Below are positions 8,286 to 59,076 of a stretch of 64,000 nt of DNA, piece after piece. This DNA comes from an uncultured bacterium (lineage in GTDB: Bacteria; Cyanobacteriota; Cyanobacteriia; Cyanobacteriales; Microcystaceae). A model generated the notes under the pieces. The model worked only from the letters and a program-made list of their open reading frames with translations. It was not told the origin of the DNA and searched no databases. The DNA lies in contig CAZUVR010000002.1 in the NCBI GenBank assembly GCA_964623815.1, forward strand, positions 48,576 through 112,575, in the 5' to 3' direction. Position numbers and translations under genes: made by a program. Each line of letters starts with the position of its first letter. Positions within the stretch are counted from its first letter, which is position 1.

Positions 8286-10589
8286 TTACAATAATAAAAT
8301 ATTTTCCTCTATCTCCTTCTTAATCGCGGGACTTACCTGACAGTCACTCTGTACGCATTCAACTATAAATTGATTGCCTCGATAGTATTTCTGCCAATTT
8401 TCCTGTTGCAGACGCGTCAAATTTAGATCCTGGCAAATTTTTCTATGCTCGTTCAAAATCGAGCGAAAACTATCAACCCAATCCTGTCCGTTATCCCGCC
8501 ACCAACTCTGTATAGACTCTCGACTTTGCTCCAGAGAGGGTAATTTCCCCTTTAAATCTTGCATATCCGCTTTCAGTGAGGAAGCGAGATTAAATTTTCT
8601 CTCTAAATCTAAAGAGAAGCAAAAGTTCAGAAATTTCTTCATATTTAATTCTGGACTTTTGAGGAGATTCAAACTATCTGTAAAGGCTCTAACTAAAGTC
8701 AGGTCTAAATTAAGTTCTTCCGGTAAATCATCCATTCCAGCAAACTTAACATCGAGAGCTATCGCTAGATTCAAATCTCGATTTTGTAGTAAGGTGAAGT
8801 AAAAAGCTCTGACGGCGGCGGGCTTATAGGGGATTTGCATCGAGTTAACTTTCGCCTCAATATCCCTTAAAAATTGTTGCAAAATTTTGTCTTCCAATGA
8901 TAGGTGTTTTACCCTCGTATTGATTTCTTGAACTAGGAAATCTGCTCTCGGTAACATACTGATAGTTAATAATATAACTTCCCGCCATTGAGGTTCAAAA
9001 CTGCGATCGGCTAATTTCACCAATTCTTTGTTTAAATTTTCCTGCCCATGACTAGCGATGATTTTCCGCGCCGTCAAATACTCTTGAAAGGTTAGATGAG
9101 AGAAAGAATAGACATCTTTGGCTCTCTCTACTAATAAACCGTGCTGTATTTCTATCGCTTTGAGAACTGCTTCGCTATTGAGCCATAAAGTTTCTGGATC
9201 TGTGGAGCTATTTGGTAAATTTCTCAAATAGTCTTCGATTATATACAAAATATCATTAATATCGAAAAAATACTGATTATTATTAAAGGTGAGCGAGGCT
9301 ATCTGACAGAGCAATTTAATTTTATCTGCTAAGGATAGATCTCGATAAATGCCATCTCTTTGAATTCCCCTCGCCTGATCCCATTTTTGTAGTAGTATGT
9401 CTAACCCTGCTTGATATAGTCGGTATCTTTTCGTTGGGAAAGAGGCTTTTTCTTTAAACACCGAGCAGATCAAATTTAACAGTATCGGTGTAGCAGCTAA
9501 ATCTCGAATCGGTTTATTAGCAGGTCTTTCTAAGTGTTCAAAAAATTGCTCGGCTTTCTTTGAGCCTTCTTCTTTACTATTGGCGGTAGCGATAAACCAA
9601 TTTCTGGCGAATGCTTCTATCTGTTGAGGATTAAAATCCGCTAATTCTACATAGGTGAATCCTCGAAAATAATATTTTTGGATTCCACTCCTACAAGTCA
9701 TAAATATAGTATTTTTATAATAGCTTTGAGATAGCTGTTCTATCTCTTGAAAGAGAGCTTCGCTATTAATATCTGTTACTTCATCTAAACCATCTAGCAA
9801 AAATAAAAATCTACCTTCTTGGAGTAATTGTAGTATTTTCTCCGATGAAATATTAGATTTTTCCCCTATTGAAAGGATAAATTTCATTAAATTAGAATTT
9901 TCATCTTCTTCTACATTTTCCACTATTAAAGTACGCAATTGAATGAATAAAGGAATCAAATGAGGTTTAAATTGACCTTTATTACACTGTAGAGCGATGT
10001 ACTGTAGGAAAGTAGTTTTTCCTCCTCCCGGCTTTCCTAAAATCATCAGCTTATCGTATTGTCCGGCTATCTGCATGGCCGAGACAGCCTCTTGATGATG
10101 ATGGGTCAGACTAGGTCTTTCTAAAGATAGCTGGTTATATTGGAAGTCATTTACTTCTAACCACCTCTGGCTACTCGGTTGCGGGAATAAATTGATTAAG
10201 ATATAAATCTCTTCTAAAGAGGGTTGAGTTAAATCAAAAGCCGACTGCAAGCTATTACATTGAGTTTGTATTTGTTCTTTTAAATGAGCGCGGATATGCT
10301 CGACCCAGCTATTAGAATTATCAGCTTCTTCCTCTAACTCGATAGATTCAGAACTCAGCAGCGATGAAGGTAAATCGGCTATATCCTCCCATTCTAAATT
10401 TAACTTAAAGCAAATTTCTTTAAATAAATAACGCTCGATCGGTCTACCAGTGAAAAATTTCCATACCGATTGACGACTCGATAAACCCACCTCAGCCGCT
10501 AAATACTCCTGAGTCCACCCTGTTCTATCAAAAGCTTCTTTAGCCCTAATTATTCCTTTCTGAGATGCTTTGAGAGACCTTTTTGCCAT
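8286..10589 (-). CDS. HTH(XRE)-NACHT family STAND NTPase
   Basis: 767 aa. The N-terminal helix-turn-helix is GWTQEYLAAEVGLSSRQSV. Walker A is ILGKPGGGKTTFL and the NACHT-type Walker B is FLFLLDGLDEV. There is no WD40/TPR sensor repeat in the C-terminal ~300 aa. Confidence 0.8.
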   Translation of the reverse strand: MAKRSLKASQKGIIRAKEAFDRTGWTQEYLAAEVGLSSRQSVWKFFTGRPIERYLFKEICFKLNLEWEDIADLPSSLLSSESIELEEEADNSNSWVEHIRAHLKEQIQTQCNSLQSAFDLTQPSLEEIYILINLFPQPSSQRWLEVNDFQYNQLSLERPSLTHHHQEAVSAMQIAGQYDKLMILGKPGGGKTTFLQYIALQCNKGQFKPHLIPLFIQLRTLIVENVEEDENSNLMKFILSIGEKSNISSEKILQLLQEGRFLFLLDGLDEVTDINSEALFQEIEQLSQSYYKNTIFMTCRSGIQKYYFRGFTYVELADFNPQQIEAFARNWFIATANSKEEGSKKAEQFFEHLERPANKPIRDLAATPILLNLICSVFKEKASFPTKRYRLYQAGLDILLQKWDQARGIQRDGIYRDLSLADKIKLLCQIASLTFNNNQYFFDINDILYIIEDYLRNLPNSSTDPETLWLNSEAVLKAIEIQHGLLVERAKDVYSFSHLTFQEYLTARKIIASHGQENLNKELVKLADRSFEPQWREVILLTISMLPRADFLVQEINTRVKHLSLEDKILQQFLRDIEAKVNSMQIPYKPAAVRAFYFTLLQNRDLNLAIALDVKFAGMDDLPEELNLDLTLVRAFTDSLNLLKSPELNMKKFLNFCFSLDLERKFNLASSLKADMQDLKGKLPSLEQSRESIQSWWRDNGQDWVDSFRSILNEHRKICQDLNLTRLQQENWQKYYRGNQFIVECVQSDCQVSPAIKKEIEENILLL

Positions 10590-14234: not shown

Positions 14235-15407
14235 ATGAGTATATTGGTAACGTACCGCTTTCCCCCTGGGGTTGATGCCGCTAAACAGGCTCGGATCATA
14301 GCCGTAGGACAGACGGCCGGCACTTGGGACGATCGTTTCAGTCATCGTCAGGGGGAACTCCAAAGACACCTGGCTCAAGTGATAGACGTAGAAACCCTAT
14401 CCAACGGTTACGAGCTAGCCCGGGTAAGTTTTCCCCTCTTTAACGTGGAAAACGATATACCCAGCCTGTTAACGATGATATTCGGTAAATACTCGATGGC
14501 GGGTTTCGGCAAGGTGGTAAAGGTGGAATTACCCGGGGATTACGGTACGAAAGCCCAGCTCGGGATTACGGGTATAAGAGATATATTAGGGGTTTACGAT
14601 CGTCCCTTAATCATGGCCATCTTCAAACCCGCTTTAGGACTATCGGCGCGGGATCACGCCGCTATCCTTGAAGAGGTGGGTAACGCGGGCTTAGATATTA
14701 TTAAAGACGATGAAATTATGGCGGATTTACCCTCGGCACCAACGCGGGAAAGGTGGAAATATTGCCGGGAAGTTTTAGAAGATATTAGGGCGAAAACTGG
14801 GCGCAGGGTGCTTTACGCGGTTAACGTGACGGGTAGGGCGGATGAATTGCTCGATAAAGCCCGCTCGCTAGTACAAAACGGTGCTAACGCCCTATTATTA
14901 AACGTACTTACCTACGGTTTTTCGGTTTTATCGGCTTTAGCCGCCGATCCGGAGATAGGAGTACCTATCTTCGCCCATCCTGCCTTTGCCGGGGCCATGT
15001 GCGCTGGGGAGGATACGGGCTTATCCTATTCCGTAGTTCTCGGTACTTTAATGGCCTACGGTGGTGCCGATGCGGTGTTATATCCCGCTTCCTACGGAAG
15101 TTTACCCTTCGATGCGGAAGAAGAAGGTAAGATCAAGGATTATCTACGCGATCGTAACGTTTTCCCCGTACCTTCTGCCGGTATCGTGCCAGGTGTCGTG
15201 CCCTTAGCCTTAAGGGATTACGGGCGGGATGTAATTCTCAATGCGGGTACGGGGATTATGGATCATCCGGAAGGCTCGGCGGCGGGGGTGAGGGCTTTTT
15301 TTGAGGCCTTAGAAAGGGTAAAGGAAAATCAACCTTTCGATCCAGCTACCGTACCGCCTTCAGCTTTAAAATCAGCCTTATTGAAATGGGGTGTTAGAAA
15401 CCCATAA
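14235..15407 (+). CDS. RuBisCO large-subunit-like protein (form IV RLP)
   Basis: 390 aa. GLDIIKDDE corresponds to the RuBisCO GLDF.KDDE carbamate-Lys motif, and the protein aligns overall with the large-subunit C-terminal TIM barrel. It is shorter than bona fide RbcL. Confidence 0.8.
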
Positions 15408-16503
15408 CCGAAGCAACTACCGAGATGTCAGGGGAGATACCAGCTTTGAGGGCGTTGTTACTGCTTTTGATGGCACAATCCGGGTCTTTTAAACCGTTAC
15501 CGGTGAGGACACAGACGATCGTAGCTTCATCGGGTACGCTATCTTTAACTTTCAATAGCCCGGCTACGGAGGCGGCGCTGGCGGGTTCACAGAATACGCC
15601 CTCGTGGGCACCTAAGAGACGGTAAGCCTCTAGAATTTCCTCATCGGTGACGGAGTTAAAGGCTCCCTGACTAGCTTCTTGCGCCCCCCAAGCTTTTTCC
15701 CAGTTAGCTGGGTTGCCGATGCGGATAGCGGTAGCGATCGTTTCAGGGTGGCTGACTGGTTGACCAATGGTAAAGGGGGCTGCGCCTGCCGCTTGGAAGC
15801 CCATCATTTTCGGGAGGCGAGCGCACTTACCAATTTGGTGATACTGACAGAAGCCCATCCAATAGGCGCTAATATTACCTGCGTTACCGACTGGGATACA
15901 GAGCCAATCGGGGGCGTTACCCAAGACATCGACGATTTCAAAGGCTGCGGTTTTTTGCCCTTCCAGGCGATAGGGATTAACGGAGTTGACTAAAGTAACG
16001 GGGTAATTTTCCGATAGCTGACGTACAACTCGGAGAGCGTCGTCAAAATTTCCATCAACAGCGATGACTTCAGCTCCGTAGAGGAGAGCTTGAGCCAGTT
16101 TTCCTAAAGCCACATAGCCATCGGGGATGATGACGAAAGCTCGCATACCTGCCCTTCTGGCGTAGGCGGCGGCGGCAGCGGAGGTGTTGCCAGTGCTGGC
16201 GCAGATGACGGCTTTGGCTCCTGCTTCCTTAGCTTTGGAGATAGCCATAGTCATCCCCCTGTCTTTAAAGCTCCCCGTAGGATTGAGTCCGTCGTATTTG
16301 ACCAGCACTTTCACGCCCCGGCCGATCAAACTGGAAATGTAGGGAACCGGGATTAGGGGGGTATTGCCTTCAAGTAGGGTGACAACGGGCGTGTTATCGC
16401 TCACCGGAAGATAGGGGCGGTAGGTTTCGATCAAGCCTCGCCACTGTACTGCGTTATGAAAACGATTGGTTAGGGAGGCGGTGGATAGAGGTTGAATGGT
16501 CAT
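15394..16503 (-). CDS. thrC: threonine synthase
   Basis: 369 aa. The PLP-lysine motif is GSFKDRGMT, and [15 protein letters not shown] plus the glycine-rich GNAGN are typical of ThrC. Confidence 0.9.
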
Positions 16504-19813: not shown

Positions 19814-22800
19814 TTATGGACAATCGGTAGCGTTAGTATCGAGCCTCTGGCCAGCGACGCGGGCACAACGTAGTTGTCGGATATAGGGGTCATCCGCCTG
19901 TAATTGTTTGTAAAATTCGTTCCGGGGGGTGCCTACGGAGATGAAACGTTTGGCGATCGGTCCGGGGGGGATGTATTGCAAGGCCACGTCATAACCCCAG
20001 AGTCGGTTAGGTGCCGAGTAGTAGGGCAAGTTTTCCCCCGCTGCCGGATTCTGTCCCGGTTCCCAGGCTTCGTGATCGAAAGGAGCCGTTGCGTAAGTGG
20101 TAAAGTTTAACTGTACGAAAGCTCCGGATATAAATAGGTTATCTCCGTTCCAATCCTCGATAAAGCGGGGGAAATTATGGAAGCCCCCGTAGGATTGGAA
20201 CCGGCGGGAGGGAATCAGGGCGTTAATGAATATGGCATTCATTCGAGTCTCTGCCGCGCCGTTCCTGACTTTTGCGTCGCCGAGAGCGCGATAGGTAGTA
20301 AAGGCCGAGAAGTTCGGTAATGGTGTCGCTGTCGTATTTCTGCCTCTGATCACCGCATTGCGATCGATCATGATTGGTGAAGTCGTATCTACCCCGAGAG
20401 CGTTAGTCAATGTATTCTCCCTTCGCCACTCCCAGGTAGAGGCGATAGTTGATGAAGTTAAGGTGCTATTGCGGTAGGAGGAATTTCTCCCGCTAGGACA
20501 AGCTCCCACGCCGGTACCGGTGTTGTCGGTATTTTGAATTCCGTCCAGTGCCGTCCCGTCGCAGAAATTGGGTGATAATACGGTGAGTGCGTCTCCCAGT
20601 ATTTCTACCGCCCGCCAGCGATCGAAAGCGGGGTTAGCAAAACTCGTACTTAATGTGGTACGGTTATTAAAGTTTGACCAATTGTTGGTTAGAAGCTGAG
20701 TGAACTCTTCTAAACGATTACCGCCGCTATCCTGGTGCAGGTTAAGATTACCTTGAATGTATATCGGATTATCGCTGATGAAGGACATACCCGACTGTAG
20801 GGGATTGGGACGGCTGACATCAGACCCATTTTTTAGCCTGAAGCCGAAGGGTTTACGCTCCGGATCGGGGTAATAGTCCACAGGCTTTGTACTAATACCA
20901 GTACTGCTGTTGACTGGAGGATCTTGGGGGGCGGCTGGATTAGTATTCATCCGACAGTTGGCGGAGGAGATTTCACTATCCTCATTACAGTTGTTATAGG
21001 TTTGGGCAGAGGGGCGAATGATCGCGTCTTCTCGCACCGCGTCTTCTCGGAAAGCATAGACGACACCACTGTTAGGGAGCCAGAAATCAGAGCTACTATT
21101 GCCTGCGATCGGCGCTCTATTACTGCGTAACAGGTTTAAGTCTATATCCATAGTCCTGACCTGCATCAATTGTCGCCCATCGTAGAAAGCCTTATCCTGT
21201 AGAGCTAAATATACGCTGGTTCCGTTATCGATGATTCTCGAACCCGATCCGGTATCGCTACTACTTGTGGGCAGTCGCCACTGGCTTCTCGGGCGAGGTT
21301 GGAAGGCTAAAAGCTCAAAAGGATTTTCGGTGCGGTTTTCTATCCCGTCATCGATGAAGACGGTTCTGTAAACTATACCGTTATTAACATCGAAGGAGGT
21401 ATTGGTGAGAGGATCATTATCAAAGATATAGTTACCAGCCAGAGGATTAACGCCGACTACATTAATAGCCGGTGGCGTGGGATTGAGATACTCTTCCGCT
21501 ACCACGGGGCGGGAAGCCACGCTGGAATCGTTGATGATCGGTTGGGCGTAGATACTGCTATTAGCTTCAGAGAAAGTTACGAAGTTAGCCGCGTTGCCAA
21601 GGAGACTATATCTCGAATCTGTATTGTTGGCAATTTTAACATTCGATTCCGGAGTCAATAACCAGGGGAGGCGGCGATAGTCGCTAACGGGTACTGTACC
21701 GAAATTATTGAAGGGTGAGTTACTCCCATCGCTTATTACTATGAGACGAGTTTGGAAGTGATTGTATTTGGGGAATAGATAATACAGAGTCGGATACTTG
21801 GGCTTATCCGTACAGAGAGCTACACTCAGTGCAACCGCAGGGTTTAAAGCCGATTGCGGCACTGGTACGGTGGCGGTAGCCGTAAAATTAGTCGGGTTGG
21901 GATCTGCCGGCCAGGAGGAGATACCGTTAGAGAACATCAGCGGATCGCAGGTGGTGATGAAAGTTGCCACCGATGATAGTTCGCCTGCTGTAATTTGACC
22001 TCGTTGCGTCCCATTATAAGACCAAGTTATAGGGGCGCTCGATACGTTAGTTCTATTACCAGTCGTTGCAGATTGACCAGCATATTGCCCGTTAGTTGGT
22101 GTTTTCAGAAAGTTGCCATTGGAAGCATTGCGGATTTGAATCGAGGGCCACAAATCGGTTTTGAAACCGTAGAGACGATCGCGTTCTATCTGAATTAGAA
22201 GAGCGATCATTTGCGCTCGCTGTACCAGACGGGCTTTTTGAGCTGCGTTAGTTAAGGTAGTATCGTTTTGAATCGCTTGAATATATTGTTCTGGCGTAAA
22301 TTGAGCGTAGAAGTTCGCTGCCGTTTGTGTGGTGGGGGTGCGATTGGGGAACGAGAAGGGCACGTAGCCGCTGATCGTAGTCGTTGAAATCGTGGAAGAG
22401 GGGGCAGCAGGCGTGTACACTGCGGTGTTATTAGATACGGAGCCGCTCATGGTATTACGAGTGTAATTGCTGGTGGGTATAGTAGCAATTTCTGGATTGG
22501 ATGAGTTCTGAACTCCGTCCATCAATCTCCACAATTCTTCACCGAGAGCTTGAATACCGGCACCTCCGCCAGCTAATGTGGCGGTATCTGCTACGGCGGC
22601 ATTATAAACATCCTGAGCATTTTTAACCGTGTAGGCCAGTAACCCGATATTTGCCGCCGCTGTTTGGATGGTGGTGCGATCGGCTATACTCAGGTTGTAA
22701 TATTCGCCACTTGAAGAGCTGTTACCCAAGCCGCCTAGAGCGCGTCTGAGGTTGGAGAAATTGCCCCACATAGTTAAGAGAGGGTAGGGGTGGACGATCG

Positions 22801-25090
22801 TTCCGGAGGGTTCTTGTATCGGGGGGAACGCGCCATCAGGATCACCAGCCATTTGGGCTAGATTGCTGAGAACCTGTCTCCAGGGATCTAAAATCTGATC
22901 GACTAAAGATTCAAAGCCATCCTGGGTGGTTACTTCCGTAGGAGTGGAGGGATTAGTAATATTATCCATAAATCTAAACTCCCAGCCATTAGTCCCCAAG
23001 CCGTTGAAAAAGTCGATATTGGGTACACCTCCAGGAAAATCGGTGCTGGTTACGTCGTTCAGCGGGCTAAAGGTGATCGAGTTAGTCAGAGTCGTCGGAT
23101 TAGCGTTATGAACTGTAGAAGCCAGAATCACGGACGGGAAATCTGGCCCGTAGTTGGGAGTGGCCGTATCTACCTCCCAGTGATATACCAAGGTTGCCTG
23201 TACCGCTGGTATATTATCCCGTAAACTCTTCCTCTGGCGATCGAGATTGGCGATGTTGCTATTGATGGGATATAAAGGTTCACCGACAGAGATCGGGAAA
23301 GCTGGTCTGGCGGTAGAATAAGATCCCAGCCAGCCATTATCGTTACCAAGTTCCAAGCGTTGACCCACGATGATACGCAATCCCTCGGCCCTGGCCCGTC
23401 TTTCCCAATAACCGTCTAATCCCGCCCAAGAATCCTCATCGGGTTGGTTATCTCCAGGGTTATATCCGCTTGGCGGGTCTTCTTGCACCAGTGCGTCTGT
23501 CGTGGCTGGTATCAATTGACCGAAAGAACTGGCTGAGGCGACGGAATACACGCTGTTATACACAGGTTTGGGGCCCCAACGATTATCGGCTCGATAGGTA
23601 TCGTCTACGTAGGGGCGGGGGATATTTTTGTCTAACATCCTCACCGACAATTTATTAGTATTGCCATAGCTCGCTGCCCAGTTGGGATCTCTAAAACTGG
23701 CATTAGTAGAATCGGTACTGGAACGCGAGCGGGATATGTCCTGAGTGAACAGGGCGATCGGATCTAAACTAAATTCATACGGGCTACCTGTTTGTGCTGA
23801 ATCGATTACGGAGTCGGTATTCACGCTCAAGGTCAGAGGAGCGCTCGGAGTATTACCCGGGCCTGGAAATAAGGTTATGTTAGATGTGCCGGCGAAATTA
23901 TCGGGAGTGGGGTTAGCGTTGATCACTTGCCCCTGAAAAGTCACCTGGCCGCTTAAGTTCTGGTTTTGAGCTAGGGTGATTTCCGAACTGTCTTGAGTGT
24001 ATAAACAGGAACTCGGCGAACTGATCAGGAAAATATTGATACTATTGCCCCCGGCAGTTTGACCCCACATGATATTACCGTCGGTGTGCATCGCTCCATT
24101 CCATCGGAAGGTAGGGCCTGGATAGGCTTCTAAGTCATAACGGAACCATACCCCCCATTTATTACCCCGATCGAGCTGTCGATCCTGTTGGAACTCCAAC
24201 GCCGTCACGCTGCGGTTATCTGTGCGGCGGTTGATAACTACTGCGTTGACTTGAAAGTTTTTCCGCACCGTTGCGGTGTTGATCGGTTGCCAACCCGCCC
24301 CTAAACTAGCCGCTGATTGCTGAATCGTGTTACAAACGCTATTGCTGGTACTGATAATACTTAAAGGCCCGGTGCGGGTAACTAAATTGTTAGATTTCTG
24401 CGTGTCCGTACTATTTAAGGTTATTTGGTTCCCCTGCGCGTCTGTGGCCGAGTTCTTAATTATTAGAGAATAGGCGATCGCTTCCGTTACTCCGTCTCCG
24501 TCTATATCAGCGGTGTACGCCCAGGCGTTATCTACCACGTTGTCGCCCGTAATATCTATTCTTGTTTCCCCTGGTAAGGTGTAGGGATCTGCGTAGGCCC
24601 CAGCATCCTGATAGGGTTGGGGCCAACCCACCGGAGGAGATTGTCGGTTGAGGATGAATTGTTCTATCCTCGAATCGTTCGGTACACCGCTCGGGAAACG
24701 ATAATCCCGTTTGAAGAAAAATTCTATTTTGGTTTTCGCCCTCTCTATCGCCGGGTTAGCGTTATTGCTCGTTAATTGTATCTGGCGGTTTCCCGATGCC
24801 TGTTGGGTTTGTTGGGAAGTTCTGAGGAGGATCGAACCTACCACCAAACTGAACACTAACAGTACCATCATAATCGTCGGGATCACAAAACCGCCTGCTT
24901 TAGCCTGTCTGGCTCTTGTCCTCTTCCATCGCGGCAGCACCTCATAATAACTAATTTCAGGGATTTTAGTCCTTTTCTGAATCCCGAAACCTCTGAATAG
25001 TTTTTTTATGGGTTTGAATAGGCGATTGTTGGCATTTCTGACAATATTCCTCAGATGCAGAACGAGTTTTTTGAACGAGCGAATTAACAT
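19814..25090 (-). CDS. very large secreted/surface protein (HpsA-like), first gene of a pseudopilin operon
   Basis: 1758-aa ORF with a basic N-terminus and one hydrophobic segment (GGFVIPTIMMVLLVFSLVVGSILL). The rest is extremely Ser/Thr/Asn/Gly/Pro-rich. It sits directly upstream of three prepilin-like genes on the same strand. Confidence 0.7.
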   Translation of the reverse strand: MLIRSFKKLVLHLRNIVRNANNRLFKPIKKLFRGFGIQKRTKIPEISYYEVLPRWKRTRARQAKAGGFVIPTIMMVLLVFSLVVGSILLRTSQQTQQASGNRQIQLTSNNANPAIERAKTKIEFFFKRDYRFPSGVPNDSRIEQFILNRQSPPVGWPQPYQDAGAYADPYTLPGETRIDITGDNVVDNAWAYTADIDGDGVTEAIAYSLIIKNSATDAQGNQITLNSTDTQKSNNLVTRTGPLSIISTSNSVCNTIQQSAASLGAGWQPINTATVRKNFQVNAVVINRRTDNRSVTALEFQQDRQLDRGNKWGVWFRYDLEAYPGPTFRWNGAMHTDGNIMWGQTAGGNSINIFLISSPSSCLYTQDSSEITLAQNQNLSGQVTFQGQVINANPTPDNFAGTSNITLFPGPGNTPSAPLTLSVNTDSVIDSAQTGSPYEFSLDPIALFTQDISRSRSSTDSTNASFRDPNWAASYGNTNKLSVRMLDKNIPRPYVDDTYRADNRWGPKPVYNSVYSVASASSFGQLIPATTDALVQEDPPSGYNPGDNQPDEDSWAGLDGYWERRARAEGLRIIVGQRLELGNDNGWLGSYSTARPAFPISVGEPLYPINSNIANLDRQRKSLRDNIPAVQATLVYHWEVDTATPNYGPDFPSVILASTVHNANPTTLTNSITFSPLNDVTSTDFPGGVPNIDFFNGLGTNGWEFRFMDNITNPSTPTEVTTQDGFESLVDQILDPWRQVLSNLAQMAGDPDGAFPPIQEPSGTIVHPYPLLTMWGNFSNLRRALGGLGNSSSSGEYYNLSIADRTTIQTAAANIGLLAYTVKNAQDVYNAAVADTATLAGGGAGIQALGEELWRLMDGVQNSSNPEIATIPTSNYTRNTMSGSVSNNTAVYTPAAPSSTISTTTISGYVPFSFPNRTPTTQTAANFYAQFTPEQYIQAIQNDTTLTNAAQKARLVQRAQMIALLIQIERDRLYGFKTDLWPSIQIRNASNGNFLKTPTNGQYAGQSATTGNRTNVSSAPITWSYNGTQRGQITAGELSSVATFITTCDPLMFSNGISSWPADPNPTNFTATATVPVPQSALNPAVALSVALCTDKPKYPTLYYLFPKYNHFQTRLIVISDGSNSPFNNFGTVPVSDYRRLPWLLTPESNVKIANNTDSRYSLLGNAANFVTFSEANSSIYAQPIINDSSVASRPVVAEEYLNPTPPAINVVGVNPLAGNYIFDNDPLTNTSFDVNNGIVYRTVFIDDGIENRTENPFELLAFQPRPRSQWRLPTSSSDTGSGSRIIDNGTSVYLALQDKAFYDGRQLMQVRTMDIDLNLLRSNRAPIAGNSSSDFWLPNSGVVYAFREDAVREDAIIRPSAQTYNNCNEDSEISSANCRMNTNPAAPQDPPVNSSTGISTKPVDYYPDPERKPFGFRLKNGSDVSRPNPLQSGMSFISDNPIYIQGNLNLHQDSGGNRLEEFTQLLTNNWSNFNNRTTLSTSFANPAFDRWRAVEILGDALTVLSPNFCDGTALDGIQNTDNTGTGVGACPSGRNSSYRNSTLTSSTIASTWEWRRENTLTNALGVDTTSPIMIDRNAVIRGRNTTATPLPNFSAFTTYRALGDAKVRNGAAETRMNAIFINALIPSRRFQSYGGFHNFPRFIEDWNGDNLFISGAFVQLNFTTYATAPFDHEAWEPGQNPAAGENLPYYSAPNRLWGYDVALQYIPPGPIAKRFISVGTPRNEFYKQLQADDPYIRQLRCARVAGQRLDTNATDCP

Positions 25091-25366
25091 AGCGGCTTAT
25101 TTTTATTTGACGGATTGAATGGGTTTTTCCGGGTCGCGGTCACACCTGCACACAAACGTTATACTTCGAGTATTCCCCTCAAAAGTAAAAAAGTTAAACC
25201 TGACCGTATTTATTTTTTTAAAGTCTCGAAGACAATTTTTTAATCGAGCAAAGTTCCTATTAACCTAAGATATGTATATTTATCTCTTTCTGGCTGTGAT
25301 CCCGATCACTGAAACCGGTGATAATTATCAATATATAGGGAAGAGAAGCCCTATCTCACAATATTT

Positions 25367-27262
25367 ATGATTATTAACACCGAGTCTTATCACCGTCCTA
25401 AATGGTGGCGGGCGATGAAGCCTTTGCCTATCTTGCCCATATTGGCGATGCTCGCTGCAACTGGTCTGGCTTTATCTTGGTCTGTCCAACTCGTAATGCT
25501 AGGGGCTTTAGGCATTTACAACGCCTTCCTATCCTGGGTGCAAACTTTGACACCCAGAGAAATTACTATCTATCATCAATTCCCCTGGCAGTACATCTGG
25601 ATTATTTCCGTCTACATCTGGCTACTTTCTCCCCTATTGCTAGATGGATTACTGAAAACCTATTACGGCCTCGAACCTTTAAAATTTGAGGATTTAGGGG
25701 AGCGATACCCGGAATCCCTAACCCTCTGGCAAAAGTTCTCTACCAAGCACCGGATCATTCGCCCTAAGTTTAAAGTATTATCTACCGATCTACCGATCGC
25801 TCTCTCTTACGGCAGCACCCCCCGCACGGGCACCCTGGTAGTCAGTACCGGCCTATTACAGTTACTGACTGACGAAGAATTAGCCACTGTCATCGCCGCC
25901 GAATTGGGGAAAATAGTTAACATAAGCTGTTTTTGCTTTTCCGGCGCGGTGGCGCTATTACAACTGCCCTATTTTTTATACTGGCGGCTCAGTAGATGGG
26001 GAGATAAACAAAAGTTCCCCTATCCCCTCGCTATCATCGCCGCTCTTTTCTGGTTTATCTATCGGTTATGGCGTTTACCCATACTGTGGCTCTCGCGCAT
26101 GAGAATTTATTATAGCGATCGCTATGCCGTAGAATTAACCGGCAATCCTAACGCTTACGGGGGGGCACTATTAAAAATTGCTCTCGGCATAAAAGAAGCA
26201 ACTATCGAGCTGGGCTATTTACATCCCTTACTAGAAAGTTTTGACCTTACCCTACCTCTCTCTCCTGCACAAGCTCTGGCGATTAACCCATCTTTATCGA
26301 GTGTACCGGCGGGAGATTGTAATCATATCTCCCGTTTTACCCGATCGCTGATGTTTAGCCATCCCCCCCTGGGTGAGAGATTGTACATCCTCGGCAAGTG
26401 CGCCGAATTCTGGCGGGTTAGCCCCGGGTTTAGCCTGCCGGAACGATCGTCTTTTAACCTGTGGGGCGCTTACCTTGATTTACCTCTATTACCTCAAGCG
26501 ATTGTTACCGCAGTAATCGGCGGCACTATTTTACGTTGTCTGTTCTGGTTAGTGGGTTTTATCAGCCTCAGAAACGGCTTTCAACCTTTGATGTGGATGG
26601 CAAACTATCCCATATTAAGGTATTGGCTGGGCTGGATAATTATCGGGGTTATTCTCTCAGTCGTCTGGGTGGTAAGGGGGCGCTTTCCTTCTGTATTTAT
26701 CTGGGTAGTTTTCCTTAAATTGATATGGGACAATTTAAACCGATATAATTTAGGGTTCCTTTTCTGGCTATTCATCGACGATCCCTTATTATTTCCCTGG
26801 ATCTTAACCGTACTTAGTTTTGCCATCATCGTCGGCCTGAATCGCTATTTCCCGAGGGTAGGGGGAGAACAGTCCCCATTGAATGAGTTATTAGCGGAGA
26901 GCGCGAACCGAAAAACTACCTCGATCGTCCTGGAGGGCAAGTTATTAGGTCGTAGGGGTATTAGTAATTGGTTGGCTCAAGATTTAAGATTACATACGGA
27001 TAGGGGTTCGATCGAGCTTAAATATTCCACGGCTTGTGGCCCTTTAGGCAATCTCTTCTCCTTTTTCCCGAAACCCTGCGAATTTACGGGTAAAAAAGTC
27101 ATCGTCAGGGGCTGGTTACGCCATTCTATTTATCCTTGGATGGATGTAGATACTATTACCGTTGAGGGGGGCCGGAGTCTCAAGAGTAACTATCGGGTTT
27201 TCCTTTTGATATTAGCTTTCGGCTCTGTCATCTGGTCTGCTTATAAAATCTATAAACTTTGA
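25367..27262 (+). CDS. M48 (HtpX/Ste24)-like membrane protein with degenerate zinc site, fused to a C-terminal polytopic domain
   Basis: 631 aa. The M48 landmarks YSDRYAVELTG and the C-terminal FSHPPLGERL are present, but the HExxH position reads AAELGK, so both His ligands are absent. The C-terminal ~290 aa add further TM helices. Confidence 0.55.
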   Translation: MIINTESYHRPKWWRAMKPLPILPILAMLAATGLALSWSVQLVMLGALGIYNAFLSWVQTLTPREITIYHQFPWQYIWIISVYIWLLSPLLLDGLLKTYYGLEPLKFEDLGERYPESLTLWQKFSTKHRIIRPKFKVLSTDLPIALSYGSTPRTGTLVVSTGLLQLLTDEELATVIAAELGKIVNISCFCFSGAVALLQLPYFLYWRLSRWGDKQKFPYPLAIIAALFWFIYRLWRLPILWLSRMRIYYSDRYAVELTGNPNAYGGALLKIALGIKEATIELGYLHPLLESFDLTLPLSPAQALAINPSLSSVPAGDCNHISRFTRSLMFSHPPLGERLYILGKCAEFWRVSPGFSLPERSSFNLWGAYLDLPLLPQAIVTAVIGGTILRCLFWLVGFISLRNGFQPLMWMANYPILRYWLGWIIIGVILSVVWVVRGRFPSVFIWVVFLKLIWDNLNRYNLGFLFWLFIDDPLLFPWILTVLSFAIIVGLNRYFPRVGGEQSPLNELLAESANRKTTSIVLEGKLLGRRGISNWLAQDLRLHTDRGSIELKYSTACGPLGNLFSFFPKPCEFTGKKVIVRGWLRHSIYPWMDVDTITVEGGRSLKSNYRVFLLILAFGSVIWSAYKIYKL

Positions 27263-39614: not shown

Positions 39615-41822
39615 ATGCTATCTAAAAATCGCAAATATTCGCAGGAATTGTTACCTACGCTCCTCCCGACGCTCGGAGTACCCATCATAACTTTACTGGT
39701 AAGTTCTGGTAATTTACCGATCGCTATCGTCGCCTGGATAGCTTCTATAGCAGCTACGGTTATAGCTGACAATCTTAAAGATAAAAATTTAGGTAATCTA
39801 GTCAGGGAGTTACAAACAAAGTCGGAAATATTGCAAGATAAACTGAAGAATTTTCAAAGGCAAGAGGTCTTATCTTCGGAGTTAGCGCAGTTAACAGTTA
39901 AAGTTGAGAGCTTAAAATCGGATGAAGCAGAACTAAACCAGAAGTTAACTGATAAAACTAAGTTATTAAATGAAACTAGCGGTAATTTAACTCACTTACA
40001 GGCACAATATACGAAGTTAACAGAGACAGTTAATTTACTAGAAGATAAGGAGAGCGAATTAAAGCGGCGCATCGAGGAAATTAACCGCAAGAATCCCGAT
40101 TTAGCCACAAAAGAGCGACTTTATCGGGATGTGGAAGAGTTAAAACAGAGTAAAGCCAGCCTAGAAGCGCAACTGAAGGTGTTAGAGCCGAAAGTCGAGA
40201 GTTTAGAGAAACTTCAATCGGAGTTAATCGGGGTTGAGGGGCAGTTAACGGCTAAGAGGGCGCAGTTAGAAGAATTGCAGGTTAAGGTGAGCGATTACGA
40301 GAAGAAGGCGACGGAGTTGGAATTATTCCGCAGTACCTACGATGCCATTGTAATCGATCGCACCGAGCAGGAAAATCGAATCAAAACCCTACGCCCGGAA
40401 GTAGAAGGCTTAGAGTTACAAAAACAGCAGATACTACAGGCGATTAGGGAAAGTCAAATCGATTATCTAGCGGCCGAAAGAAATAGGGAAGAAATTCGCC
40501 GACTCGCCGTAGAGTTACGCAACAAACAGGAGGAGGTAGCTAAAGCCGAGAGGGAAATTAATCAATTAACTGGGGTTAGAGAAGCCGAAGAAAGGGAAAA
40601 ATCTAGACTCGAAACCGAGGTGAGAAATTTACAAAGACGGCTACGGGAATTGAAACAGGAAATTGACACCGAAGAACAAAGCGCCGATAAAGCCCTACAA
40701 TCTTTATCGTCGCCCCTATGGAATAATCTACCGCAACAGCAGAAAACCCTCAGCGAAACAGAATTTCTTAACGGCTTCCGCAGTTATCTACAGTCTCAAG
40801 GGTTAAGCTTTCCCGAGAGAATTATCCGCGCTTTCCACACTTCATTAAAAGTGCAGGATATTTCTGCCCTAGTCATACTAGCTGGGATTAGTGGCACTGG
40901 TAAAAGTGAACTACCTCAGAGATACGCCGACTATGCGGGGGCGCAAAAGTTAACCTTAGCGGTGCAACCCCGCTGGGATTCACCCCAAGATTTACAGGGA
41001 TTCTATAACTATATAGAGAAGAAGTATAAACCCACAGATTTAATGCGGGGATTGTACCAATATCAGCATGATAACAAGATGAAAGATAGGCTCGTCCTAG
41101 TGTTGTTAGACGAAATGAATCTAGCGCGGGTTGAATATTACTTTAGCGACTTCCTCTCGAAACTAGAAACTAGAAGGGCGCAGACAACTTATCTAGATTT
41201 AGATGTAGGTAGTTTGCCTTTACCAGAAAATCGCAGGCGATTGGCGATACCAGCACAGTTTCTCTTTGTGGGTACTATGAATGAAGATGAGACTACTCAA
41301 TCATTATCGGATAAAGTTCTCGATCGTGCCAACGTCCTCACCTTCGGTAAGCCCTCCGCTTTAAAACTGCGGGAAGAATTCACACCCGGTAATCCCTTCT
41401 CGGATGATAAAGGTTATGTTTCCTACACCTCGTTTCGCGGGTGGTTACAAACACCTCAACCGAATTCGGATTTAGTCGGGAAGATACGGAGCTATCTCGA
41501 CCAAACTAACGCCATCATGGAGAGAATCGGCCACCCCTTCGCCCACCGCGTCTATCAAGCTATCACAGCTTATGTGGTTAACTATCCCGAGATTTATAAA
41601 GAAGAAGTATTTAAGCAGGCTTTAGCCGATCAATTCGGACAAAAGTTATTACCTAAATTACGAGGCTTGATGCTCGACGGTAGTTGTAGCGAGGAATTAA
41701 AGAAATTAGAGACCATAATAAAAGATTTGGGTGATCAATCATTAATCAGCGCATTTGAAAACGCCCAAAAAGGCAGATTTGGACAGTTTCAATGGCGTGG
41801 TTTAGTTTACGGGGAGGAATAA
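39615..41822 (+). CDS. membrane-anchored, coiled-coil McrB-like AAA+ (AAA_5) NTPase
   Basis: 735 aa. The N-terminal TM helix is LGVPIITLLVSSGNLPIAIVAWIASIAATVIA. About 330 aa of heptad-rich coiled coil follow. The C-terminal module has Walker A ILAGISGTGKSEL, an McrB-type Walker B and sensor LVLVLLDEMNLARVEYYFSDFLSKLE, and FLFVGTMNEDETTQSLSDKVLDRANVLTF, which corresponds to the McrB 'GTMN..D' motif. Confidence 0.75.
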   Translation: MLSKNRKYSQELLPTLLPTLGVPIITLLVSSGNLPIAIVAWIASIAATVIADNLKDKNLGNLVRELQTKSEILQDKLKNFQRQEVLSSELAQLTVKVESLKSDEAELNQKLTDKTKLLNETSGNLTHLQAQYTKLTETVNLLEDKESELKRRIEEINRKNPDLATKERLYRDVEELKQSKASLEAQLKVLEPKVESLEKLQSELIGVEGQLTAKRAQLEELQVKVSDYEKKATELELFRSTYDAIVIDRTEQENRIKTLRPEVEGLELQKQQILQAIRESQIDYLAAERNREEIRRLAVELRNKQEEVAKAEREINQLTGVREAEEREKSRLETEVRNLQRRLRELKQEIDTEEQSADKALQSLSSPLWNNLPQQQKTLSETEFLNGFRSYLQSQGLSFPERIIRAFHTSLKVQDISALVILAGISGTGKSELPQRYADYAGAQKLTLAVQPRWDSPQDLQGFYNYIEKKYKPTDLMRGLYQYQHDNKMKDRLVLVLLDEMNLARVEYYFSDFLSKLETRRAQTTYLDLDVGSLPLPENRRRLAIPAQFLFVGTMNEDETTQSLSDKVLDRANVLTFGKPSALKLREEFTPGNPFSDDKGYVSYTSFRGWLQTPQPNSDLVGKIRSYLDQTNAIMERIGHPFAHRVYQAITAYVVNYPEIYKEEVFKQALADQFGQKLLPKLRGLMLDGSCSEELKKLETIIKDLGDQSLISAFENAQKGRFGQFQWRGLVYGEE

Positions 41823-41823
41823 A

Positions 41824-43368
41824 TTGCGCTACTATCACAATCTCTTCGCCTATCTCAACGGTAAAGTTGCCTCAGAGGGGAAAGTTTTAGAGGGCAAAAA
41901 TCGGCCCGTTTTAGAAGTTGAGGGAAGCATTTCCCATCACCCCGATTTAATCAATCGAGGCGGGGGAGTCTACGAGATAGGTTTTCCCTACCTGACTCCG
42001 GAAGACTGGCAACACCATCACCAACAGTTACAACAGGAGATTATTTTCTCCCTCGATAACGCCCATCACAGTCTATCGGTTACGGATGAAGTTATGGATA
42101 GCGGGGCCATTGAAGATGAGGAAGAATTACAAACATGGCAGAGAGAAGGGCGACAACATCTTTTAGATGATTCCGTAGCTTTGCTATTGCAAAATTTTAA
42201 CGAGTTGTTGAAAAGGGGCAGGAAGGAAGAGGGAATTTATCTCTATGAGTTGCTTTCCTATCTGAAGAATTTCAGTATCGCCGAGGCAAGCTTACCCCTG
42301 ATACTGAGTTTAGAGAGACGCTATGAATTAGCGGTGAAGTTACGGCAGATAACGCCGAAGTTACGGCATCAACTGCGACGGCAGGCGGAATCTATACCCA
42401 TAGGGCGCATTCAGGAGATGGATAGTTACTGTCTGCGCGACTATACCCGTCGCCCAGGAAATACGCCCGAGGAAAAAGCCGGCTCGCGGGGGGAATTGAT
42501 GGGCATACAACGCTATCAAGATTACAACACCGTGGAGAATAAATTTCTTGTTTACTTCGCGGCTAAATTACATCTAGAGGGTTTTCGCTATTTAGAGGCT
42601 GGTAATCACAGTTACACCGATAGCGTCAAGAAATTCCTACAGACTATCGATGTGTTTCGGGGGGATTGGATAGTCAGGAGTATCAACAGCAGAAATTTTC
42701 AATTCACCCGGCCTAATTACGTCCTACTCCAAAATCCTATCTATAGTAGTTTCTATCGGGCCTATCTAGATTATGTGGCTGGGCGCTCGGAAAAACAAGG
42801 CGTGTGGAGTGGGCGTAATCGTTTACTGGGAAACGTGGTTTATCTCTCTCTCCTGGCTGCCATCTTAAATTTCAACGGTGTTACCCACCCCGTAGACGTA
42901 TATATACCAATTAAGTCGTCACCGGATTACGGTGATTATCTGCCGAGAGATAATCCAGTGAAGACTCGGGTAACTATATTTCTGCGGCGCTGGGTTTACG
43001 AAATCGAGGTTAGCAAATCTTCCGATTACCGGGAGGGTGATTATCTTTTAAATATCGAAAGACAGGATTCCCATTCTCTCGCGTTAGAGAGTGAGGAATA
43101 CAAGTTACCGATTTGGGTGTTTTGGTATGGGCCTTCAGAGGAGGTTATAGCCTCGGCGCTTACTTATATGGAGGCGCGGAAGGATATTTACCGACTCGGC
43201 TTAATCTTCTCCCTCGGCGCGGGCGAAGGGGAAGTTAATCCTATATCGCCCTGTCTGTGGTGGTGTGAGATGCCTCTGCCGAATGGGGAGAGGGGCTTTC
43301 TCGATGGGGTTAATTTCTTCTCTGTCAAGGTGATTAAAAATTTGCTTGAGTTTCTCTATGGGGGTTGA
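41824..43368 (+). CDS. hypothetical protein, second gene of the McrB-like operon (possible McrC-like partner)
   Basis: 514 aa starting 2 nt after the ATPase stop (TTG start). No clear motif. A candidate PD-(D/E)xK-like D...ExK near the C-terminus (IERQD...SEEYK) is speculative. Confidence 0.5.
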   Translation: MRYYHNLFAYLNGKVASEGKVLEGKNRPVLEVEGSISHHPDLINRGGGVYEIGFPYLTPEDWQHHHQQLQQEIIFSLDNAHHSLSVTDEVMDSGAIEDEEELQTWQREGRQHLLDDSVALLLQNFNELLKRGRKEEGIYLYELLSYLKNFSIAEASLPLILSLERRYELAVKLRQITPKLRHQLRRQAESIPIGRIQEMDSYCLRDYTRRPGNTPEEKAGSRGELMGIQRYQDYNTVENKFLVYFAAKLHLEGFRYLEAGNHSYTDSVKKFLQTIDVFRGDWIVRSINSRNFQFTRPNYVLLQNPIYSSFYRAYLDYVAGRSEKQGVWSGRNRLLGNVVYLSLLAAILNFNGVTHPVDVYIPIKSSPDYGDYLPRDNPVKTRVTIFLRRWVYEIEVSKSSDYREGDYLLNIERQDSHSLALESEEYKLPIWVFWYGPSEEVIASALTYMEARKDIYRLGLIFSLGAGEGEVNPISPCLWWCEMPLPNGERGFLDGVNFFSVKVIKNLLEFLYGG

Positions 43369-44824
43369 AATGTTTTTAGAAGATATGGGGCAATCTTTAC
43401 CCCTTAATCCGACTCCGCCTTTACAGTTACTGTGGAAAACTTGGAGTGAGGGGAGTGTATTTCTAGAAACTCCTTCGCCGGGGCAACTCAAAACTATTAT
43501 TCCCTCCCTGCCCCTGAGTCACTATCAAGAGACGGCCTTAAAGTTATGTCTCCATAGCCCGCTGATGGTAATTGAGGGGGTGCCGGGTAGCGGGAAAACT
43601 CGTCTCGGGAAAGTCTTGTGTGAAGGTTTGCGGCAACAGCATAAAAAAGTTTTGCTATTGAGTCACCATGAAGCTACTCTATCAGCTTACAAAATTCGAT
43701 CGCGCGGTGTGCCGGAGTCATCGCCCTTCCCCCGTATCGACATGGATTTTCTACCTCCCCACCTACTGCCGGATTATCTATTAAGGGCTTTACGGAAGGG
43801 GGGAAAGTTAGAGAAGTGGGTGGCAATCCTCCGCGATGGTAGCCAGGAAATCGATTCCCTGTTAGCTTCCGAATTCCCTGACATTCCTAAAGCGAGATTA
43901 AATTTACTAAAACTGCGGCTTCAGAATTCATTACCCCTACTGGAAAAACAATTAGCCCTACAACAGCAATCGGCGCGGTTATCGGATGAGGCTTTAGCGT
44001 CTCTGTTATCCGAGTGCGGGGCGTTACCTATCTCGACAACGGTAGCCCAATTTTTTCAACCGGCAAATAAAGAAGCCCAGAAAGCTACTTTTGATTGCAT
44101 CATCGTGGAGGAGTCGGAATATCTAGAGTGGCCCGAATTGGCTTCGCTGGCGACTATGACTGATAAGCTAATCCTCTTAGGTGACTTAAACATCGAGCGC
44201 GTTTATCGGCAGAGGAAAGATTTTTCAGAGTTTGCCCCTTTTGAGTGGTTGAGTCAATATTTATGCCCCGCCTATCGCTATCGACTACCGCAGCAGTTTC
44301 GCCTACATTTTAGTATCGCTCGGCCGATTATCGGGAGTCTTTACAGGAATACGGTTATCGAGACGGCATACAGACACGATAGCCTCCATCTTCCCGTATT
44401 ATTCCATAGATGGGGGTGGCAGGAGGTGCGATCGCTCCCCGCCGACGATATAAATACTATCGAGGGCCGGCGTTTACTCCAATACCTGACGAGGCTTGAT
44501 GGTATCCCTTCCGACGCGATAGGAGTATTAACCTTTACCACCCGTCAGAAGCAATGGTTACGGGAAAACCTCCCCGCCGGATGGGAAGGGGTTTTTATAG
44601 GTAATATCGAGGATTGGGCGGGGAAAGAGATACCCATACTCCTCATCAGTTGCGTGGGTTATCCCGAAAAGTTGAAGCGGCAGGATTTAAAAATCGCCCT
44701 AACCCGTTGCCGGGATTATCTAATTCTTTTCGGTAACGGTAAACAGTGGCTAAAATTCGTCTCGCCGTTACAATCTCTGCTGACGGCTGAGGAAATACAA
44801 AGAGAGAGAGAGGTGTTGATATGA
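43346..44824 (+). CDS. compact Upf1-like SF1 helicase-family protein (AAA_11/AAA_12)
   Basis: Motif I is EGVPGSGKT. Motif II is degenerate, IIVEESE in place of DEAsQ. Motif III is LILLGD, motif IV-like is YRYRLPQQFR, motif V is GNIEDWAGKEIPILLISCV (compare TVD.FQG.E.D.IILS.V), and motif VI is LKIALTRCRDYLILFGN. Only 492 aa. The likely ATG at 43370 overlaps the upstream stop (tgaaATG). Confidence 0.7.
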   Translation: MSFSMGVEMFLEDMGQSLPLNPTPPLQLLWKTWSEGSVFLETPSPGQLKTIIPSLPLSHYQETALKLCLHSPLMVIEGVPGSGKTRLGKVLCEGLRQQHKKVLLLSHHEATLSAYKIRSRGVPESSPFPRIDMDFLPPHLLPDYLLRALRKGGKLEKWVAILRDGSQEIDSLLASEFPDIPKARLNLLKLRLQNSLPLLEKQLALQQQSARLSDEALASLLSECGALPISTTVAQFFQPANKEAQKATFDCIIVEESEYLEWPELASLATMTDKLILLGDLNIERVYRQRKDFSEFAPFEWLSQYLCPAYRYRLPQQFRLHFSIARPIIGSLYRNTVIETAYRHDSLHLPVLFHRWGWQEVRSLPADDINTIEGRRLLQYLTRLDGIPSDAIGVLTFTTRQKQWLRENLPAGWEGVFIGNIEDWAGKEIPILLISCVGYPEKLKRQDLKIALTRCRDYLILFGNGKQWLKFVSPLQSLLTAEEIQREREVLI

Positions 44825-46485: not shown

Positions 46486-46489
46486 TCCT

Positions 46490-48805: not shown

Positions 48806-48874
48806 AAGATAATATAAAGTCGGTGAGGATAGAGATGCGGACTAGTAGAATAGTGAATATATAACAGCATAATC

Positions 48875-49519
48875 ATGATGGCTCAAACTTTACTAAAATT
48901 TCCTTCTAGGACAGTCTTAACCGGGGTGCGGTGGCAAACTTATCAAGGACTGCTGAGCGATTTAGCGGAGAATCCTGGTAAAAGACTAACATACGATCAA
49001 GGCATATTAGAGATCATGACTCCACTGCCGGAACACGAAATTAATAAAGGCTTCTTAAGCAGGCTGGTACAGACAGCGACTGAGGTATTGGGGTTAGAAG
49101 TCTTAAGCCTCTGTTCTACAACCTTAAGCCGGGAGGACTTACAGAAAGGGATTGAACCCGATGAGTGTTATTACATTACGAACGAGGCTCTAGTAAGGAA
49201 TAAGACCTATTTTAATTTTAGCGTCGATCCGGCTCCCGACTTAGCGATCGAAGTAGATATTACCAGTAGTTCTCTCAATCGGCTAGGAATTTACGCCGCT
49301 TTAGAAGTCAGTGAATTATGGCGATTCGACTGCGAGAATTTATCGATTTATTGTTTGCAATCTGGAAATTACCGAGAGGGGGAAAAGTCTAGGATTTTAC
49401 CGATTCTTTCCAAAACGATAATTTTGGAGTTTTTAAGAAAAAGGGGCGAAATGGGAGAAAATGCTTTACTTAAAGAGTTCCGTCAACGGTTACAAACTAT
49501 TGACCAGGAAACCAGATAA
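48875..49519 (+). CDS. Uma2-family (DUF820) putative restriction endonuclease-like protein
   Basis: 214 aa with a PD-(D/E)xK-like core in the Uma2 arrangement (LTYDQGILEIMTPLPEHEINKGFL...DLAIEVDITSSSLNRLGIYAALEVSELW). Confidence 0.7.
   Translation: MMAQTLLKFPSRTVLTGVRWQTYQGLLSDLAENPGKRLTYDQGILEIMTPLPEHEINKGFLSRLVQTATEVLGLEVLSLCSTTLSREDLQKGIEPDECYYITNEALVRNKTYFNFSVDPAPDLAIEVDITSSSLNRLGIYAALEVSELWRFDCENLSIYCLQSGNYREGEKSRILPILSKTIILEFLRKRGEMGENALLKEFRQRLQTIDQETR

Positions 49520-56846: not shown

Positions 56847-59076
<2,230 letters not shown>

Follow-up and report, generated by a model that had tools for sequence, protein, structure and literature searches.

In the classical STAND regulators (signal transduction ATPases with numerous domains), an input signal permits both nucleotide-dependent oligomerisation and co-operative binding to promoters. 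The closest described relative of the gene analysed here is XssQ of Synechocystis 6803, a protein with a helix-turn-helix (HTH) domain at its N-terminus that was termed "a new type of STAND protein" (Maeda 2021, PMC8205485). Here we describe a homologous gene, located at 8286-10589 of a 64,000-nucleotide stretch of DNA (the window, in what follows) from an uncultured bacterium of the Microcystaceae (GCA_964623815.1, contig CAZUVR010000002.1, positions 48,576 to 112,575 of the forward strand). A preliminary description of the stretch had presented its product as a possible antiphage sensor. We propose instead that it is a STAND transcription regulator of the XssQ family, a reading to which we would give a probability of about 0.78.

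XssQ is encoded by slr5058 (PMC12267927). It is required for the production of synechan, a sulfated exopolysaccharide, and its overexpression suffices for induction; the genes that it activates are xssA-E and xssL-P, with glycosyltransferase and sulfotransferase genes among them (PMC8205485). In electrophoretic mobility shift assays (EMSA), XssQ shifts a fragment of the xssE promoter in a manner that depends on an AAGTTXXAC box, and single or tandem AAGTTNNAC boxes are its binding sites (PMC8205485). Its activity is placed under two other proteins in the order XssS -| XssR -> XssQ, where the hybrid kinase XssS inhibits, the REC-GAF regulator XssR activates, and XssQ is epistatic; this function rests on genetics, quantitative PCR, RNA sequencing and EMSA (PMC8205485). 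XssQ homologues are widespread, and the full three-gene set occurs in some genomes only (PMC8205485), so that adjacency to XssS and XssR is a mark of the three-gene system, whereas the protein family is not defined by it. More recently, four Anabaena homologues were reported to adjoin two-component systems (PMC12267927, 2025).

The same logic, a STAND NTPase switch joined to a DNA-binding domain, is found in MalT of E. coli, in the AfsR/SARP-type regulators of Streptomyces and in GutR of Bacillus, which are all cited as STAND transcription factors (PMC8205485, PMC7159879). These proteins differ from the window protein in each of their parts. The MalT and AfsR types use a MalT-type or AP-ATPase/NB-ARC NTPase, a LuxR-type (C-terminal) or OmpR-type (N-terminal) winged helix, and TPR/SUPR sensor repeats, whereas the window protein has a NACHT module, an N-terminal XRE domain and no sensor repeats. 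No Pfam match to GerE, Trans_reg_C, BTAD or TPR was found in it, which places it outside the MalT/AfsR type.

The window gene is an open reading frame (ORF) of 767 codons, from an ATG start to a TAA stop. The N-terminal residues MAKRSLKAS are kept in all orthologues, and the start codon is therefore correct; the public protein data contain one identical copy of the 767-amino-acid product (P0001). When plasmids were searched by tblastn, the top match lay on pSYSM at 57972-60293, with 43.1% identity, 100% coverage and E = 0. The matched gene encodes a NACHT NTPase and is found where the xss cluster ends, beside a response regulator and a hybrid kinase, a position that identifies it as xssQ. The two proteins (XssQ being WP_011153595.1, slr5058, on pSYSM) are alike in their Pfam matches and in the order of XRE-HTH, linker, NACHT and NCH2. 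Full-length homology, domain order and the presence of the N-terminal HTH all place the window protein in the XssQ family, the homology being one of sequence in a phylum where several paralogues occur.

As regards the N-terminus, sequence alone is insufficient to call a HTH, since both Pfam HTH_3 and HTH_31 stay sub-threshold (E = 0.02-0.03), and structure prediction was needed; the sequence matches to HipB, C.BclI and the 434 repressor are likewise in the range E = 0.05-0.7. Modelled with AlphaFold2, the first 76 amino acids form a five-helix bundle with a predicted local distance difference test score (pLDDT) of 92.5. Nearly all of the top 50 neighbours of this model found by Foldseek in the PDB are of the Cro/C1-XRE type, with TM scores of 0.6-0.7 and root-mean-square deviations of ~2 Å, among them CylR2, C.BclI, C.AhdI, lambda cI, 434 Cro, HipB, SinR and MBF1. 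According to the model, the N-terminus is thus a Cro/C1 (XRE)-type HTH, predicted to bind DNA, with helices at residues 10-23, 27-33, 40-47 (the recognition helix, SRQSVWKF), 53-62 and 67-70. Within the family, this domain is conserved best (72% mean identity); it is 66% identical to the HTH of XssQ, with a recognition helix that is near-identical in the window protein (LSSRQSVWKFFTG) and in XssQ (LSTRNSVWKFLTG). A profile search with the HTH found this type in 1262 representative clusters (50% identity); the best matches are mostly proteins of 730-870 amino acids that carry the domain at their N-terminus, and the type is almost confined to that position and size. The top match of this search is of another kind, a 498-amino-acid protein (P0122) in which the XssQ-type HTH is present three times in tandem, an unusual architecture for this domain.

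The remainder of the protein begins with what is, by its motifs and its predicted structure, a genuine and complete NACHT module. The Pfam NACHT model aligns with residues 181-334 at 60.3 bits, against a gathering score of 26.7, and is the best NTPase model, that of NB-ARC remaining below its cutoff. Both the Walker A motif GxxxxGK[ST] and the Walker B motif D[GAS]hDE, which is the NACHT signature as defined by Kibby et al., are present. Moreover, residues G185, G188, G190, K191, T193, D266, E270 and R300 are invariant in 76 homologous sequences, and the NTPase is apparently catalytically competent. A family profile built on these 76 sequences matches NLRC4, NLRP3, NLRP9 and NOD2 in the PDB, the NLRP3 matches beginning at query positions 97-124. 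In the alignment with NLRC4, the window motif YSFSHLTF falls opposite YKFFHKSF (FSH against FFH), that is, at the histidine of the winged-helix domain (WHD). The AlphaFold2 model of the whole protein (pLDDT 83.8, predicted TM score 0.73) leads to the same proteins, with NLRC4, NLRP3 and NOD2 as its most similar structures in Foldseek (E ~1e-10). The succession of nucleotide-binding domain (NBD), HD1 and WHD that characterises the NACHT clade is present, WHD histidine included, and the HD1/WHD segment retains 64-67% mean identity among orthologues. For the NBD-HD1-WHD-HD2 portion, no better match was obtained, by structure or by profile, than these eukaryotic NLRs (NOD-like receptors); they differ from the window protein in their leucine-rich repeats (LRR) and CARD or PYD domains, which it lacks, in an identity of ~16%, and in output, which here is predicted to be DNA binding.

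The preliminary description had noted a C-terminus of ~300 amino acids without repeats, and here its account stood in part. The region is indeed non-repetitive: no Pfam repeat family matches it and self-BLAST reveals no internal similarity. It is not a single unknown domain, since an HD2-like region (~513-665) is followed by NCH2 (NACHT C-terminal helical domain 2) at residues 672-766 (Pfam, E = 7.8e-28). AlphaFold2 modelling, which had been suggested as a check of this part, gives an all-helical fold with pLDDT ~85-94. NCH2 is the least conserved globular domain of the family (39% mean identity), and W696, W704 and Y736 are invariant in the 76 sequences; the HD2/NCH2 tail is presumed to be a regulatory or partner-binding module. 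The remaining outline given at first, an XRE-type HTH preceding a NACHT core (GKPGGGKTT, DGLDE) and a short C-terminus, is confirmed by Pfam, AlphaFold2 and Foldseek together.

A search of 5.8 billion proteins returned >5000 matches. The best 120 are all cyanobacterial and 48-63% identical to the window protein, in addition to the identical copy and a 78% identical fragment; they share the NACHT and NCH2 architecture, and nearly all measure 728-803 amino acids. It had been envisaged that orthologues might carry long WD40 or TPR arrays, of which the window copy would be a truncated remnant; among these best 120 homologues there are no WD40, TPR, LRR or other repeat arrays, and this, together with the near-uniform length, rules out a truncated repeat-bearing NTPase. 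A scan of species-representative genomes extended the full-length relatives to Chroococcales, Pleurocapsales, Nostocales, Oscillatoriales/Coleofasciculaceae and Acaryochloris, with two family copies in some genomes. Cyanobacteria possess a sizeable family of NACHT proteins that are predicted to act as transcription factors. The fusion of HTH and NACHT had been regarded as an unusual arrangement; it was in fact described in 2021, and in the NACHT survey of Kibby et al. both HTH and NCH are listed in the key to the domains of the architecture figure. Architecture and role being already published, the window gene is a further, orphan member of a known family.

The genomic context of the relatives provides an additional layer of evidence. 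When the flanking ORFs of 80 loci were clustered, one cluster was found to adjoin the family gene in 46 of them; according to Pfam, it is made up of hybrid histidine kinases (HisKA-HATPase-REC-REC-Hpt, with varied sensors) and response regulators (REC-GAF, REC alone, REC-EAL). Genes of two-component type account for 24% of all genes that occupy positions ±1 and ±2 and for 3-4% from a distance of four genes onwards, an enrichment of about six-fold, and such a gene lies within two genes of the family member in 37 of 73 loci. The architectures HisKA-HATPase-REC-REC-Hpt and REC-GAF equal those of XssS (in full, PAS-PAS-GAF-HisKA-HATPase-REC-REC-Hpt) and XssR (REC-GAF), and in the triad found beside the closest relatives of the window protein these neighbours are 37-48% identical to XssR and XssS. 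In a neighbour-joining tree, which carries no support values, the window protein clusters with sequences of Hydrococcus, Snowella and Crocosphaera, whose genes adjoin XssS/XssR-like genes; such linkage is the rule in this part of the tree, and the group stands next to the branch that contains XssQ and the Xenococcaceae sequences.

Polysaccharide genes also recur beside family members, in three separate clades. Immediately upstream of the Aphanothece hegewaldii homologue (63% identical) lie genes for a 917-amino-acid hybrid kinase and a 296-amino-acid REC-GAF protein and two glycosyltransferase family 2 (GT2) genes, and in the Nostocales clade the family gene is flanked by sugar-nucleotide enzymes, GT2 and ABC exporters. 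Genes of xss biosynthesis type within ±8 kb are found in a minority of loci only.

A scan for tandem boxes, defined as two AAGTTNNAC boxes 9-14 bp apart (~0.03 pairs per shuffled window), recovered the published site upstream of xssE as a positive control. In four Xenococcaceae/Waterburya loci it found the arrangement AAGTTATAC-N3-AAGTTATAC, in one case with a single mismatch. This tandem box lies between the kinase-regulator-XssQ-like operon and a divergent GT2 gene, ~80-115 bp upstream of the latter and in the same orientation as that gene. This provides independent computational support, at the level of sequence, for the use of the same box by family members outside Synechocystis at glycosyltransferase genes, and the site may be regarded as a predicted operator; with it, a second predicted promoter, in a second lineage, would be added to that of xssE. 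For the clade of the window protein, a k-mer search of 12 intergenic regions between kinase and NACHT genes yielded TTGTNAAGTT-N6-AAC in four loci, three of which are closely related; the looser form AAGTT-N6-AAC occurs in the window at chance level (3 sites against 2.2 expected), and the variant is not convincing as the box of the clade. Elsewhere in the window, the divergent intergenic region 25090-25367 contains AAGTTAAAC (at 25191) and AAGTTCCTATTAAC (at 25251), whose resemblance to the XssQ box is weak, may be due to chance and is too slight for a call; it is flanked by a 1758-amino-acid ORF (19814-25090, minus strand) that has no Pfam or PADLOC match, and by an M48 peptidase gene.

By analogy with MalT-like STAND regulators and NLRs, the family would work as follows. 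In the resting state, the NACHT module would be bound to ADP and kept in a closed form. It would be opened by an input, for which the REC-GAF regulator, acting on the HD2/NCH2 region, is the probable source in most relatives; such a protein-protein input to XssQ is plausible because XssR has no DNA-binding output domain. Nucleotide exchange would then drive oligomerisation, and the clustered N-terminal HTHs would bind repeated boxes co-operatively, leading to the activation of transcription. The family lends itself, as a tractable bacterial system, to the study of how a NACHT switch can be put under the control of a response regulator and linked to promoter binding.

The window copy itself stands apart from the XssQ system. 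It is chromosomal and lies between housekeeping genes: upstream, at 134 bp and on the same strand, is ribF, and on the other side a convergent alpha/beta-hydrolase gene, with a Wzy_C-domain protein, a glycoside hydrolase family 10 (GH10) gene, PTPS and other housekeeping genes nearby. The Wzy_C-domain protein and the GH10 glycosidase are situated 1-5 kb from the gene and are kept in Chroococcopsis gigantea SAG 12.99 (GCA_032860995.1), where the whole arrangement is the same. The C. gigantea protein is 72-78% identical to that of the window and the flanking genes 70-92%; the gene is thus not unusually fast-evolving, since its divergence falls within the range of its neighbours, and the match in arrangement and divergence indicates that the locus was vertically inherited. 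GC content is ~0.37 in the gene against ~0.46 in the flanks, ~9 points lower, in the window and in C. gigantea alike, whereas the mean deficit of the family is 0.022 (68 loci). This unusually low value suggests that the regulator gene was inserted by itself in an old horizontal transfer, and that it has not ameliorated since. When the upstream region was aligned with its C. gigantea counterpart, conservation was limited to the last ~15 nt ahead of the ATG, with no evident shared operator; a scan for consensus promoters and terminators in turn gave results at or near shuffle level.

Several observations weigh against the reading of this particular copy as a regulator of the XssQ type. No kinase or response regulator was detected by Pfam on the large ORFs of the 64-kb window, and when XssS, XssR and 14 xss biosynthesis proteins were compared with it by tblastn, the gene itself was the sole match. 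An adjoining pair of XssS-type kinase and XssR-type REC-GAF regulator is thus absent within 64 kb, as are a sulfotransferase or xss-type cluster and a nearby AAGTTNNAC tandem box, all of which belong to the XssQ system. Single AAGTTNNAC boxes are not enriched in the window (5 against 6.9 expected), and the scan for tandem boxes gave none for the window, C. gigantea, A. hegewaldii or the Crocosphaera clade. To these may be added the want of support values in the tree, the low GC content, which is compatible with a mobile, accessory origin, and the state of the C. gigantea copy (L083:10001-12309). One frameshift, at codon 497/498 and within the invariant YSFSHLTF motif, divides this copy into two ORFs of 498 and 225 amino acids, both halves being otherwise intact. 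The frameshift is due either to an error in the assembly or to a recent lesion or pseudogenisation; if real, it would speak for the orphan copy being dispensable.

Taking the window protein as an XssQ-family regulator, its regulon would most likely consist of envelope or exopolysaccharide genes. The alternative that survives best retains the same HTH-NACHT switch and changes what lies on either side of it: the regulon would be unrelated to polysaccharides, and the HD2/NCH2 tail would sense its input directly, with no phosphorelay. We consider it possible, if the less probable choice. It accounts well for an orphan context with neither two-component system nor exopolysaccharide cluster, for the absence of the XssQ box from the window and the closest clade, and for the scarcity of xss-type biosynthesis genes around the family as a whole. 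It is harder to reconcile with a recognition helix nearly identical to that of XssQ, with the Wzy_C protein and GH10 glycosidase conserved close to the gene in C. gigantea too, and with the recurrence of polysaccharide genes beside family members in three clades.

The reading as an NLR-like antiphage sensor, put forward in the preliminary description, would have the C-terminal domain recognise a phage component, the NACHT module oligomerise and the HTH serve as effector, through a defensive transcription programme or through indiscriminate DNA binding. The protein does possess a genuine NACHT module, short repeat-less bacterial NACHT proteins can defend against phage, and DNA-binding domains are counted among the possible "adaptor" effectors (Kibby et al.). 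In addition, the NACHT module gives weak matches to PDC-S60, a PADLOC candidate (1.8e-12), and to EruA of NCBIfam (1.5e-9), conservation among the globular domains is lowest in NCH2, and the GC deficit is an accessory-like trait, the sole one. Nevertheless, against the curated defence models (PADLOC and the NCBIfam antiphage equivalogs) only such generic matches were obtained: none to a bNACHT or NLR defence model at E ≤ 1, and EruA scores 36.6 bits where its cutoff is 1000. The locus at 8286-10589 is neither a defence island nor a variable accessory location; ribF, PTPS, the hydrolase, Wzy_C and GH10 have no defence matches and are syntenic in C. gigantea, and the only candidate defence block is 29 kb away. 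In contrast with antiphage bNACHT proteins such as bNACHT01 (Kibby et al.), the window protein has at its N-terminus a HTH, predicted to be sequence-specific, and not an enzymatic or death-like effector. Across cyanobacterial orders, the family keeps its length, its HTH and key residues of the C-terminus, with the HTH conserved most strongly, and divergence is no faster than in the neighbouring genes. The systematic linkage to two-component and polysaccharide genes and the full-length homology to XssQ, a characterised and specific promoter-binding activator, make the regulatory role of the family largely evident, and the antiphage reading becomes improbable. A tempting misannotation is thereby corrected: a short bacterial NACHT protein is not always an antiphage sensor.

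It is also very unlikely that the gene is an orphan in decay or devoid of function, which was transferred without the kinase and regulator genes it belonged with, was deprived of input and targets and has been kept by drift. The missing partner genes and tandem boxes, the foreign-looking GC content and the split C. gigantea copy could suggest this, but the window ORF is intact and has kept all invariant residues, both catalytic and of the HTH. In C. gigantea, the two halves show no further lesions and a divergence like that of neighbours under selection, a pattern that fits purifying selection plus either an error of sequencing or a lesion of very recent date, and about half of the family members have no adjoining two-component gene and are conserved all the same.

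In vertebrates, NLRs are linked to transcription by CIITA and NLRC5. A far-reaching extension of the XssQ-family reading, which we mention as a long shot, is that the orphan XssQ-type proteins would be self-contained, NLR-like cytoplasmic sensors, whose HD2/NCH2 region directly detects a cue of stress or infection, with no phosphorelay, and by way of NACHT oligomerisation turns on a transcription programme that remodels the envelope or the exopolysaccharide. Such proteins would be bacterial NLRs with gene activation as output, possibly in a barrier response to phage or grazers, and they would link NLR-type sensing to bacterial transcription much as CIITA and NLRC5 do in vertebrates.

Table 1. 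Coordinates of the gene, of the predicted parts of its product (aa, amino acids; nt, nucleotides), of the predicted target boxes in related loci and of the distant co-oriented block.
Feature	Position	Strand	Basis or remark
Predicted XssQ-family HTH-NACHT-NCH2 protein gene, complete	8286..10589	-	ORF list and translation
Predicted Cro/C1 (XRE)-type HTH DNA-binding domain, aa 1-72	10374..10589	-	AlphaFold2 and Foldseek
HTH-NACHT linker, aa 73-91, variable, predicted disordered	10316..10373	-	pLDDT <50 at aa 75-89; 17% mean identity
Pre-NACHT helical extension, aa 92-169	10083..10315	-	Helix 92-111 in model; aligns with segment N-terminal to NLRP3 NBD
NACHT nucleotide-binding domain, aa 170-335	9585..10082	-	Pfam NACHT, E = 2.6e-16
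Walker A GKPGGGKTT, aa 185-193	nt 10011-10037	-	Motif position
Walker B/NACHT signature LLDGLDE; DGLDE aa 266-270	nt 9780-9794	-	Motif position
Sensor-1 TCR, aa 298-300	within 9585..10082	-	Motif position
HD1 and WHD, aa 336-512, with conserved YSFSHLTFQEYL motif (His498)	9054..9584	-	NLRC4 profile alignment, Foldseek
Non-repetitive helical C-terminus, aa 513-767 and stop	8286..9053	-	HD2-like ~513-665, NCH2 672-766
Predicted tandem XssQ-type boxes (four related loci)	L008:252-280, L010:3789-3815, L014:3503-3530, L029:2055-2082	- of each locus	Tandem-box scan
PDC-M26A, Pfam AAA_5	39615-41822	+	PADLOC, 8e-44
MkoA/helicase, weak	43346-44824	+	PADLOC
DrmC/PLD-like, weak	44821-46485	+	PADLOC
771-aa ORF, no match	46490-48805	+	PADLOC
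PDC-S17	48875-49519	+	PADLOC, 3e-44

Three other features of the window deserve mention. The six co-oriented genes at 39615-49519 (plus strand), whose 3′ part is markedly low in GC (0.34-0.39), form a candidate defence island 29 kb from the NACHT gene and unrelated to it (Table 1). A gene for a LanM-type class II lanthipeptide synthetase (DUF4135 and LANC_like; 59398-62598, minus strand) implies that the window has a lanthipeptide biosynthetic locus at its right end. Finally, a gene for a RuBisCO-like protein (a large-subunit homologue of 390 amino acids; 14235-15407, plus strand) adjoins one for a PLP-dependent enzyme (15394-16503, minus strand), and the pair is kept in C. gigantea.

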